DNA of 46,686 nucleotides from a virus (lineage: Duplodnaviria; Heunggongvirae; Uroviricota; Caudoviricetes): positions 1 through 46,686 of IMG/VR virus record IMGVR_UViG_2778261229_000001; one strand, 5' to 3'. Each line of letters starts with the position of its first letter. Position 1 is the stretch's first letter. The translations under genes and the position numbers were made by a program. This document shows positions 11,176 through 14,100 of the stretch, piece after piece. The notes under the pieces were generated by a model, which saw only the letters and a program-made list of their open reading frames with translations, was not told where the DNA came from and ran no database searches.

Positions 11176-14100
11176 ATGACCACTGTGAATAAAAAGTTAA
11201 AAAAAACTGCATCTGGCGCGATTACATGGTCGGTAATTGTTACCCAGATATTATCTCCAGTTTCTCTTTCTTTGATCCCAGCAAACAGTTTTGCATCATC
11301 TGGTAATAAAGATGTTACGCAAACTTATGCCAGCGATGAGCATGCAAATAAAGTGGCCTCATTTGCAGCAAGTGCAGGTCAGAGCCTGGCGAATAATAAT
11401 GCAAGTAGTTTTGCTGTAAATACTTTATCAACTCAGGCGACAAAAGAGGTCGTCGACTGGTTGCAACAATATGGCAATGCGCGCATCAAGCTTAATGTCG
11501 ATGATTCTTTTTCCTTGAAGGATTCATCATTCGACTTTTTATATCCATGGCTGGATACTCAGGATTATGTGCTTTTCAGTCAGACATCACTACATCGTAC
11601 TGATGACCGAAATCAGACCAATATTGGTTTGGGGATTCGTCATTTCACTCCTGATAACGCAATGTTGGGTGCGAATGTTTTCTATGATTACGATTTAAGT
11701 CGCAGTCACTCTCGTGCAGGTTTTGGGGTTGAGTACTGGAGAGATTATTTCAGGCTTGGTGTAAATACCTATTTTGGTTTGTCTGACTGGAAGAACAGTC
11801 GGGATATTGATGATTATCTGGAAAGACCCGCAAATGGCTGGGATTTTTCTGCTGAAGGATGGCTACCTGCTTATCCGCAATTAGGGGCATCCATTCAGTT
11901 TGAAAAATATTATGGTAAAAATGTCGGGTTATTTGGAAGCGATAATCTGCAGGAAAACCCTTACGCAGTTACTGGGGGAATTTCTTATACACCAGTTCCT
12001 CTGATTAAGTTTTCTGCACAGCATAAGCAAGGACAGAGCAACGTTCACGATACAACCTTTGGTGTTGAGTTTAATTATCGCCCGGGCGTTTCCCTTGCTG
12101 AACAGCTTAGCAGTGACAATGTTGCTGTTATGCGAGAAGTCCAGAACCGGCGTTATGATTTTGTTGAACGAAATAACAACATTGTTCTGGAGTACAAGAA
12201 GAAGCATGCACTGAAAATCAGTTTGCCAGAGTCTGTTCAGGGGGAGGGGGAATCAATCATCCCTGTAACACTGACAATCAACAATGCTAGTGGTGGTATC
12301 AAGTCTGTACAGTGGAATGATAGTGCATTCACTGCGGCTGGCGGCAAGATCAGTGGAAATGGCACATCATGGCAGATCACTTTACCGGCTTATAAAAGCG
12401 AAGGTGTAAATTCGTGGAATGTTGGAGCCACAGTACAGGATAACAGAGGCAACGTTTCCAACTATGCCGTGATGAATATTAGCGTTACTGATAGTGGTGT
12501 CTCGACGGCTGATTCGTCTTTTACACTGGATGGAGATTCGTCGCCGACGATCTCTGCTGATAGCCAATCCACTTATCCAATAGTATTAAGCCTGAAAGAT
12601 AGTAACGGTAAGGCATTAACCGGACTGGCTGATGACATTGAAATGTCAGTGGAATTTACAGCAGATAGCAATAGTGCTCGACAGCGTGAAACGGTAACTG
12701 CTCCGTCATTAGGCGCGGTAGAGGAAATCTCTGCTGGGGTATATCGCTCTGTTCTGACTGCTGGTTCGCAGGCTGGTACGGTACTTGTAACTGCAAAAGT
12801 TCAGGGAAAAACCTTTACTCTGAATATTAAGCAGGCAGCCATTACTGATAGTGATGTATCGACAGCTGATTCGTCTTTTACACTGGATGGAGATTCGTCG
12901 CCGACGATCTCTGCTGATAGCCAATCCACTTATCCGATAGTATTAAGCCTGAAAGATAGTAACGGTAAGGCATTAACCGGACTGGCTGATGACATTGAAA
13001 TGTCAGTGGAATTTACAGCAGATAGCAATAGTGCTCGACAGCGTGAAACGGTAACTGCTCCGTCATTAGGCGCGGTAGAGGAAATCTCTGCTGGGGTATA
13101 TCACTCTGTTCTGACTGCTGGTTCGCAGGCTGGTACGGTACGTGTAACTGCAAAAGTTCAGGGAAAAACATTTACTCTCAGTATTAAGCAAACAGCAGCA
13201 ACAGAACCTGATTCTGAGGTCAGTGCTGTTTTAACCGCTGCACCAGCAGAACAGGTAGTTGGTTACAATATCAATCTACAACTGGCAGTGAAGGATTCAC
13301 AAGGAAATGCAATCACTGGTGATAACACTCTGAGCTTTTATGCTCTTAACCAGGCAGAAGGAGTCGAGTTTGGGACTGTAACGGAAAAAGACGGTGTCTA
13401 TAGCGCGACAGTAACTTCAAAACGAGCTGGTAAGATTACTATCGGTGTTAAATCTGATAGTCATGATTTCTCAGGTGTTAAGAAAGAAATCACCTTTATT
13501 GAGGACCGGCAGCAGGTTACATTCTCTCAGTTTGAAGCCAGCCAAAATAATGCATTGGCTGATGGAAAACAGAGAAATATGGTAACTGTAAGCCTTGCGG
13601 ACCGTTTCGGCAATGTTGTTCCTGGTTATGCTGTCACATTGTCTTTACCAGCAGGGATAACTCAAGTTGGTGGTGAACATGCTGTTTCAACTGACGAAAA
13701 TGGTAATGCTATTTTTGCGTTAATAAGCTCCACTCCGGGGTCTTACGTGATTACAGCTCATGCTGGTTCTCAGATGTCTACTGAGTTAACAGTGACCTTT
13801 GCATCAAATATGACCGGAGCTTCACTGTCACTGACGCCTGAAAGCAGTAGTTTAATTTCCAATATTCCTGCTAATGGTAAGGATGCAGCGGTATTAGATG
13901 TGCAGCTGACAAATACGAATGCGTCGGTCAATGGGCAAAAGATTCAGCTCATCACCTCATCTGAAGGATTATCTGTACCAACAAATATCGTGACTGATTC
14001 AACAGGGCATGTTTCTGTTCCGCTTACAACGGTGAAAGCTGGTGAGTACACGGTGACTGCACGGGTGACTGACGGTTCCCATAGCGTGGAATCTGGCAGC

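Follow-up and report, generated by a model that had tools for sequence, protein, structure and literature searches.

An in-frame 357-bp Ig-domain array of variable copy number in a prophage-borne inverse autotransporter of Escherichia coli

The inverse autotransporter gene and its prophage setting

The window, meaning the whole stretch of 46,686 nucleotides that was analysed (IMG/VR record IMGVR_UViG_2778261229_000001), holds an apparently complete prophage, with the Red recombination genes exo, bet and gam at about 3.4–5.2 kb. The gene under study and its neighbours lie further along, at the following window positions:

11176–15084, plus strand: inverse autotransporter gene (type Ve, intimin/invasin family), an ORF of 1302 aa with Pfam IAT_beta and Big_1/Invasin_D3 matches
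11344–12177, plus strand: outer-membrane beta-barrel translocator domain, aa 57–334 (PF11924, IAT_beta; E = 4.9e-101; 338 bits against a cut-off of 22.3)
12199–12483, plus strand: first passenger domain, D00-like, aa 342–436, directly upstream of the repeat (aligns to intimin D00-D0, 6TQD, E = 1e-9)
13199–14700, plus strand: five further Big_1/Invasin_D3 Ig-like stalk domains, mutually divergent (Pfam on 100-aa slices; match to invasin 1CWV)
14701–15081, plus strand: C-terminal tip region of ~127 aa, with a putative function assigned from position
15096–15116, both strands: strong bidirectional intrinsic terminator that separates the adhesin gene from the convergent hydrolase gene (a G+C-rich hairpin, T-runs on each strand)
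15121–16164, minus strand: convergent alpha/beta-hydrolase (esterase/lipase-like) gene, an ORF whose NCBIfam esterase-type matches are all below cut-off

An exact protein look-up returned WP_097730560.1, which carries the RefSeq name ‘inverse autotransporter beta domain-containing protein’, and the strain A20 gene is annotated identically. The family assignment follows from the N-terminal PF11924 barrel and the C-terminal Big_1/Invasin_D3 passenger (187 and 184 bits, respectively, over the whole protein), and the barrel also matches the structures of invasin (4E1T, E = 1e-73) and intimin (4E1S, E = 8e-63). The RefSeq name is generic, and all eight NCBIfam equivalog models for named inverse autotransporters, covering intimin, IatC, SinH/IatB, Ilp, YrIlm, Inv and YchO/IatA, scored far below their cut-offs. 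Ahead of the barrel, aa 1–~40 resemble a signal peptide when read by eye, with a K-rich stretch, a hydrophobic stretch and then ...NSFA/SS. The first passenger domain had no Pfam match when searched alone, and Pfam searches with slices of the tip region gave no credible family match, only a spurious sub-threshold one; from its position we presume that the tip is the functional or adhesive end. The protein is presumably an adhesin or biofilm factor, and its display at the surface, its adhesion and any effect of its length would be expected by analogy with the rest of the family.

A lambdoid prophage integrated beside icd carries the gene as cargo, between gene P, for replication, and the nin region (ybcN/ninE). 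As is typical of such cargo (‘morons’), it is located inside the prophage and outside the conserved gene order, has its own terminator, is variably present and deviates in composition, with a G+C of 0.37–0.48 compared to 0.50–0.54 in the flanks. Promoter-like sites upstream of the gene were not commoner than in shuffled sequences. The hydrolase gene is a frequent but non-obligatory partner in the cargo slot, present in A20, JJ1886 and Ecol_244 and absent from AST215.

A near-identical pair of Ig-like units

Directly after the first passenger domain, the gene contains two adjacent copies of a 357-nt unit, which encode the second and third passenger domains of the 1302-aa protein:

12485–12841, plus strand: repeat unit 1, 357 nt, aa 437–555, one Ig-like domain, with a 5' edge of first-unit type and a 3' edge of internal-junction type
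12842–13198, plus strand: repeat unit 2, 357 nt, aa 556–674, one Ig-like domain, with a 5' edge of internal type and a 3' edge of last-unit type
12813–12864, plus strand: unit–unit junction, holding junction-specific variants

Tandem Repeats Finder, run on the window, reported this array at 12485–13190 (period 357, 2.0 copies, 97% matches, no indels, score 1349), and a second repeat search of the window recovered the identical pair. The earlier note had placed the repeat at 12489–13202, which is the same repeat with the register offset by 4 nt, and its count of about 10 mismatches was right: the units are identical at 344 of 357 nt (96.4%), leaving 13 mismatches, or 11 without the last two non-homologous positions. 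Its description of each copy as an in-frame 119-aa module also agrees with the ORF at 11176–15084, which stays open across both units (357 = 3 × 119) and contains the quoted peptide twice. At the protein level 113 of 119 aa (95%) are identical, and a near-identical in-frame pair of this kind cannot be a product of chance. The mismatches are not spread evenly, as 10 of the 13 lie close to the unit ends (first 23 nt and last 29 nt), and the 305 nt between them contain three (binomial P = 8e-7).

That the unit is an Ig-like domain, as had been proposed from the sequence, is borne out by Pfam Invasin_D3, which matches each unit at residues 8–110 (40.5–41.6 bits against a cut-off of 33), and by the alignment of a unit to one Ig domain of FdeC (4E9L residues 289–385, E = 2e-6). 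The alignable homologues are all >90% identical, and a single-sequence AlphaFold2 model of aa 430–695 reached a mean pLDDT of 41, too low for structural claims; a rod-like geometry of the stalk is presumed.

Assembly reliability and copy number among strains

Repeats of this kind are a known hazard for assembly, and the two-unit state could in principle be an artefact in which a true array of three or more units (or one) had been collapsed or expanded. Short-read assemblies do fail at this locus: at least ten IMG/VR contigs stop within the array, a 357-bp contig in an unrelated assembly consists of one unit, a collapsed three- or four-unit array would look like two units, and 1302-aa forms are very abundant among drafts whereas three units dominate complete genomes. 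The window, however, is 100% identical over 25 kb to E. coli A36, which, like A20, has accessions within CP028732–CP028772, a set of de novo PacBio RS II/HGAP assemblies. PacBio reads easily span 714 bp, the two independently assembled genomes (A36 and A20) give an identical two-unit gene, and each of the two units has private SNPs. As the window is equivalent to the PacBio-assembled A36, with two units, assembly collapse is unlikely; the concern over an artefact raised in the earlier note is thereby largely removed, and we regard one as very improbable.

Copy number was compared among complete E. coli genomes. A 50-mer overlapping the junction (12817–12866) has 100% matches at 755 places in 394 genomes, mostly twice in each, but it cannot seed on the diverged allele lineages B and C and therefore overestimates one-unit alleles; a query built from the flanks only was used instead. 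This query matched 581 places in 562 records, with ~19 genomes carrying two copies of the gene. In an evenly spaced sample of 57 of the matching genomes, 35 had three units, 13 had two and nine had one, a majority for three units that owes part of its size to the clonal over-sampling of ST131-like genomes. Alleles with one, two, three and four units encode proteins of 1183, 1302, 1421 and 1540 aa, respectively, and are exemplified by Ecol_244 (3552 bp, one unit), the window, A20 and A36 (3909 bp, two units) and JJ1886 (4266 bp, three units), while four-unit proteins were found on 5.1-Mb contigs. FXCREC028, a candidate for five units on the basis of four junctions, has three units at this locus when aligned.

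The proposal that the repeat mediates length variation between strains is upheld by these counts, and several of the alleles are otherwise identical in the gene. Four haplotypes share 3,195 nt of identical flanks and differ in unit number only, and six one-unit genes each equal a longer sampled allele with identical flanks minus one unequal crossover, including two different collapses of the three-unit gene of JJ1886. Copy-number change at this locus is recent and recurrent. All 31 of the full-length alleles examined keep the reading frame, and phase variation was ruled out because all of the changes are in frame.

Age of the duplication and concerted evolution

In the simplest history, a one-unit ancestor underwent a single recent tandem duplication and the ~10 mismatches are later point mutations, as the earlier note had assumed in calling the duplication recent. 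The copies are adjacent and 96.4% identical, and one-unit alleles exist, both of which fit such a history. It predicts, however, that the junction should consist of a last-type 3' edge joined to a first-type 5' edge, whereas the real junction is off at ~10 positions within ~50 nt; many of these differences are synonymous, while the 305-nt core has three, the clustering described above. The one-unit alleles, further, correspond exactly to single-crossover collapses of multi-unit alleles that occur alongside them.

The comparison between lineages also speaks against a recent origin. In alleles of lineages A, B and D the cores of the units are 0–3 nt apart, compared to 13–21 of 305 nt (4–7%) between the more diverged lineages A, B and C, for which synonymous divergence is 0.14–0.19. 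The same junction-specific variants (unit positions 329–357, then 13, 17 and 23) are nonetheless common to lineages with cores this far apart, so the duplication is older than those lineages. At the 3' edge, the first and last units are 6–7 nt apart in every lineage while orthologous edges are 0–2 nt apart. With these observations the claim of recency was not sustained, and a single recent duplication appears very unlikely. The pattern instead indicates that the duplication is old and that concerted evolution, through unequal crossover or gene conversion, has kept its copies uniform.

Homogenisation is not uniform, since in alleles of lineage C the cores of the units differ at 11 positions. 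Differences between lineage B and the window are almost confined to gene nt 397–972 and 1260–2001, and part of the between-lineage pattern could come from the import of whole arrays by recombination rather than from conversion in situ. A scan of one genome per species returned no more than part of a barrel from E. albertii (80%) and a stray 357-bp contig, leaving no outgroup with which to polarise the array.

Selection on the gene

Between lineages, pN/pS is 0.13–0.18 (about 0.15), with values of 0.01–0.22 across segments of the gene, as expected of a coding sequence under purifying selection. Diversifying selection on the repeat, of the type that would accompany antigenic variation, was ruled out by these ratios and by substitutions that are mostly synonymous.

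The copy-number changes may be real and still have no adaptive role, as a mutational side effect of a long direct repeat within cargo that is dispensable and possibly silent. The gene is missing from ~90% of E. coli complete genomes (present in 561 of 5426), it had no match among 50,697 records of isolated phages, collapses seem easy and frequent, and in some strains it is interrupted by IS elements, which argues against strong selection everywhere. Set against neutral instability are the purifying selection seen across segments, the intact frame of every full-length allele examined and the persistence of multi-unit arrays in all lineages even though collapse is easy, a hint that loss is opposed in some way; adjacent domains of high identity are also generally disfavoured unless length variation is useful (Whelan et al., PMC8201768). 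Neutral instability is, on balance, a possible but less probable account of the array.

Proposed mechanism and significance

Taken together, the array is probably a small, old and actively recombining set of 357-bp units in the part of the stalk nearest the membrane, in an inverse autotransporter carried by a prophage, with length switching of the periscope type. Because the units are near-identical over ~305 nt and their length is a multiple of three, exchange between them would add or delete whole domains with the frame and domain boundaries intact. The route may be unequal homologous exchange or slipped pairing between units, and the same exchanges, along with gene conversion, could account for the identity of the unit cores. 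Pairing out of register is not possible at the outer edges of the array, and old divergence would be retained only there. Each event would likely lengthen or shorten the stalk by one Ig domain and, with it, may alter the reach of the C-terminal tip relative to LPS or capsule.

Presumably, recombination enzymes carry out these exchanges. A bolder extension, to which we attach little weight, is that unit number is often reshuffled during prophage induction and replication by the prophage's own exo/bet/gam, with each burst or lysogenisation seeding a new adhesin length, and that unit number is perhaps selected to match the thickness of the host capsule or O-antigen, with, for example, three units fixed in ST131-type backgrounds.

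Short-read assemblies, in which contigs break or collapse at the array, do not reveal the true length of this gene, which ~10% of complete E. coli genomes carry, and pan-genome, typing and vaccine-antigen work on the protein needs long reads. The locus also offers a clean, quantifiable case of concerted evolution in which a Gram-negative ‘periscope’ adhesin carried by a prophage has repeatedly gained and lost domains, with exact single-crossover derivations visible in public genomes. If stalk length governs exposure of the tip past LPS or capsule, then unit number would tune adhesion or immune visibility in a simple, heritable way in ExPEC lineages such as ST131.

Comparison with known systems

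The window protein shares its secretion family and overall architecture with FdeC (EaeH), intimin, YeeJ and IatA–D (Goh et al. 2019, PMC6714894). FdeC supplies the closest solved Ig domain (4E9L) and, like the window protein, lacks LysM and a recognisable C-type lectin domain. The named E. coli inverse autotransporters lie at fixed chromosomal loci, whereas the gene described here is prophage cargo, and the NCBIfam scores are distant from the respective cut-offs for IatC (393 of 2400 bits), intimin (336 of 1400), SinH (318 of 999) and YchO (272 of 508). No variation in tandem-repeat number was found in IatC or IatD (Goh et al. 2019, PMC6714894).

YrIlm and YrInv of Yersinia ruckeri are likewise inverse autotransporters with almost identical tandem Ig domains, and their repeats are described as causing misassembly and varying in number (Wrobel et al. 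2018, as cited in PMC6714894 and PMC9704523). They differ from the present case in species, in being chromosomal genes and in having many more repeats. The NCBIfam model for the YrIlm N-terminus scored 305 bits against a cut-off of 750, and the window protein is therefore not an orthologue.

Among Gram-positive surface proteins, the streptococcal Rib and alpha C and the staphylococcal SasG and Aap, the archetypal Periscope Proteins, also have tandem domain repeats that are near-identical at the DNA level; intragenic recombination alters how many repeats they have, and a functional domain is held at the far end of the stalk. Unlike the window protein, these are sortase-anchored, have other folds, range from 2 to 46 copies and have experimental links to immune escape.

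The nearest precedent is Periscope Protein cluster 53 (‘YeeJ’, UniProt A0A192CME6), an E. coli protein with 119-aa Invasin_D3 repeats in 2–3 copies (Whelan et al., PNAS 2021, Dataset S1, PMC8201768). Every listed attribute matches and, compared by these attributes rather than by sequence, cluster 53 is almost certainly the protein of this window. The ‘YeeJ’ label would then be a misnomer, true YeeJ having 2,359 aa and a LysM domain. In the features that define Periscope Proteins, the 119-aa units are 95% identical in amino acids and 96.4% in nucleotides, and repeat number, which in this class varies among homologues at least 90% identical in long-read or complete genomes, ranges from one to four in complete E. 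coli genomes, also between haplotypes with identical flanks. Periscope repeats are further described as folding individually into an elongated rod that carries a distal functional domain; for the window protein such a rod is presumed, each unit corresponding to one whole Ig-like domain in its sequence matches to Pfam and PDB (the single-sequence model having a pLDDT of 41). The cluster 53 table makes no mention of the prophage location, the one- and four-unit forms or the concerted-evolution pattern. A length-variable ‘periscope’ adhesin is an already known kind, and the value of the present case is mainly one of caution together with a small refinement.

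A two-unit array in the adhesin gene

Tandem Repeats Finder places a single long-period array in the window, at 12485-13190, with 2.0 copies of period 357 that match at 97% and without indels (score 1349); the identical pair was recovered with a second repeat search. The period corresponds to 3 x 119, with both copies in frame within the 1302-aa ORF of the inverse autotransporter adhesin (11176-15084). In the register chosen for this analysis, the units are:

12485-12841, + strand, unit 1
12842-13198, + strand, unit 2

This is the same tandem repeat that an earlier note had placed, with a 4 nt offset, at 12489-13202, and the count of about 10 mismatches offered there was accurate. 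The units are identical at 344/357 nt (113/119 aa for the protein). The mismatches are strongly clustered: the two edges of the unit (its first 23 and last 29 nt) account for 10 of the 13, leaving three for the 305 nt between them, the core (binomial P = 8e-7).

Unit number among E. coli genomes

The strain-to-strain length variation predicted from the window was borne out, with E. coli genes possessing 1-4 units.

Unit number, gene length, protein length and example sources of the adhesin
1 unit; 3552 bp; 1183 aa; Ecol_244
2 units; 3909 bp; 1302 aa; window, A20, A36
3 units; 4266 bp; 1421 aa; JJ1886 and other ST131 genomes
4 units; 1540 aa, from protein records rather than a locus reading; P0002 and P0137

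The 1540-aa proteins were found on contigs of 5.13-5.16 Mb. When the two unique flanks alone (1300 + 1300 nt) served as the query, 561 of the 5426 complete E. coli genomes gave a match. From the ranked full-length matches, 57 were sampled at regular intervals; their span indicates three units for 35 of them, two for 13 and one for nine, proportions biased by the abundant ST131-like genomes in the collection. A 100% conserved 50-mer from the junction, the unit-unit boundary with its own edge variants, was present at 755 places in 394 genomes. About 19 genomes have two adhesin gene copies (562 records with 581 places in total), and plasmid-labelled records account for a few of the places (e.g., NZ_CP195449.1, 195 kb). 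With two copies resident in one genome, inter-copy recombination of the array would be possible.

Short-read assemblies systematically break at the 357-bp array. At least 10 IMG/VR contigs begin or end within it (e.g., L017, L021, L027, L028, L030, L031, L033, L035, L037 and L038), and a stand-alone 357-bp contig from a 'Moraxella osloensis' assembly (L046; CAXORL010000232.1, 1-357), 99% identical to the unit, most likely represents E. coli contamination, the tandem repeat having collapsed to a unit-length contig. A longer array, once collapsed, would also appear as two units, but it is very improbable that assembly produced the two-unit state in the window: A36 and A20, which yield an identical two-unit gene, fall within an accession range (CP028732-CP028772) of genomes assembled de novo from PacBio RS II reads (HGAP) and Illumina-polished. 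Over its first 25 kb, the window aligns to the E. coli A36 chromosome as one unbroken match with 100% identity.

Recent contraction of a probably old duplication

Comparison of 31 full-length alleles, drawn from E. coli genomes and from prophage contigs of IMG/VR, shows array contraction to be both recurrent and recent, since haplotypes with identical flanks vary in unit number and six one-unit genes are exact deletion derivatives of longer sampled alleles. Four haplotypes with fully identical flanks (1309 + 1886 nt) differ in unit number, one of which occurs with three, two and one units. Each of the six one-unit genes corresponds to an allele with identical flanks minus one 357-bp or 714-bp deletion, placed inside the permissible crossover interval: Ecol_244 (locus L002) is SK1144 (L042) minus one unit, the same relationship links L026 to L011/L012, L025 to L018 and L020 to L008, and the JJ1886 three-unit gene has collapsed in two different ways to give L022 and L041. 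Expansion would be expected through the reciprocal exchange.

Across four lineages of adhesin alleles (A-D), the unit edges behave as orthologs and the cores evolve in concert. In every lineage, 6-7 positions within the final 29 nt distinguish the first unit from the last, while an edge compared with its ortholog in another lineage shows just 0-2 differences; several of the differences at the edges are synonymous. Conversely, cores within an allele have 0-3 differences in lineages A, B and D and 11 in lineage C, compared to 13-21 between lineages A, B and C, which are the more diverged. Synonymous divergence of the units between lineages is 0.14-0.19. A recent duplicate of a one-unit gene was considered and rejected; it predicts a last-type 3' edge joined to a first-type 5' edge, and the observed junction, common to all lineages, differs at ~10 positions. 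The simplest reading of these patterns is that the duplication is old, with cores continually homogenised via unequal crossover or gene conversion and one-unit alleles representing derived collapses. The earlier description of the duplication as recent thus holds for the ongoing changes in unit number and fails for the origin of the duplication, as the junction variants are common to all lineages. Whole-array exchange between alleles also appears to happen; differences between lineage B and the window are almost confined to gene nt 397-972 and 1260-2001, with two in the remaining ~1900 nt.

Prophage setting

The prophage that carries the adhesin gene is lambdoid and integrated next to icd. Within it, the gene occupies the interval from replication gene P to the nin region and is followed by:

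15096-15116, no strand assigned, strong bidirectional terminator between, and common to, the adhesin and hydrolase genes
15121-16164, - strand, alpha/beta-hydrolase gene convergent with the adhesin gene, esterase/lipase-like with all NCBIfam matches below cut-off

The gene pair has a G+C of 0.37-0.48 compared to 0.50-0.54 in the flanks, and the low G+C and shared terminator are typical prophage-cargo features. Most adhesin-carrying prophages possess the hydrolase gene, which is absent from AST215 and truncated by ISEc23 in AZ 191. In FXCREC028, ISEc23, of the IS66 family, also disrupts the adhesin gene, at its 3' end. IS insertions in the same prophage differ among strains (A20, L001 15904-16923; L004 7112-9528; L041 5363-5957); an IS110-family element separates the repressor and cro-like genes in A20 but is missing from the window (~8400-8650). 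Imperfect 19-23-bp tandem repeats (consensus TTTACCCGAATCAGGTAAAAAAG) at 9650-9762, inside the replication-initiator gene (9209-10228), look like iterons of a lambdoid replication origin. Two large tail genes contain short tandem repeats (21-nt x 2.7 at 42727-42783 in 41768-45070; 19-nt x 2.3 at 40569-40612 in 37645-41043).

Domain architecture and predicted function

In the inverse autotransporter, Ig-like domains of the Big_1/Invasin_D3 type come after the beta-barrel (PF11924, aa 57-334, E = 4.9e-101), which matches the invasin and intimin barrel structures. A separate scan of each 119-aa unit identified a single complete Invasin_D3 domain (residues 8-110; scores of 40.5 and 41.6 bits against a cut-off of 33), and each unit aligns with one FdeC Ig domain (4E9L residues 289-385, E = 2e-6) with a ~13-residue insertion. 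Because of this content and the upstream match of aa 342-441 to intimin D00, the units are placed as the second and third passenger domains, directly after D00. Downstream are five divergent Big_1-type domains and a C-terminal region of ~127 aa (14701-15081), presumed to be the functional tip, for which the domain scan found no Pfam or family match. A change in unit number is predicted to alter the stalk by one Ig-like domain beside the membrane, leaving the tip unchanged. Structure prediction for the adhesin was too poor for use (pLDDT 41).

The adhesin is probably functional, because the whole gene is under purifying selection and the frame is kept in all alleles. Substitutions in the units between lineages are mostly synonymous (pN/pS 0.13-0.18), with no signal of sequence-level antigenic diversification in this ratio.

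Relation to known systems

None of the NCBIfam equivalog cut-offs for IatC, intimin, SinH, Ilp, YrIlm, Inv and YchO was reached, and the adhesin is an unnamed member of the inverse-autotransporter family, outside of the seven E. coli groups of Goh et al. 2019 (PMC6714894). A C-type lectin signature is missing from its C-terminal region, which sets it apart from intimin, invasin, YeeJ, IatC and IatD. IatB, IatC and IatD have been shown to be adhesin/biofilm factors (Goh et al., PMC6714894), and family membership predicts a similar role for this protein, as an adhesin or biofilm factor displayed on the surface.

The adhesin falls within the operational definition of a Periscope Protein, a surface protein with tandem repeats >50 aa and ≥80% identical, the number of which differs between closely related homologues when long-read genomes are compared. 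Whelan et al. 2021 (PMC8201768) include in their dataset E. coli cluster no. 53, labelled 'YeeJ' (UniProt A0A192CME6), which is almost certainly the same protein because every listed attribute agrees, a comparison of attributes rather than sequence. The best-described analogous case in the family is that of the Y. ruckeri inverse autotransporters YrIlm and YrInv. The array phenomenon is of a known class and has probably been catalogued already; this analysis adds its location in a prophage, the range of 1-4 units, the explicit derivation of alleles by single crossovers, the pattern of concerted evolution and a warning for short-read assemblies.
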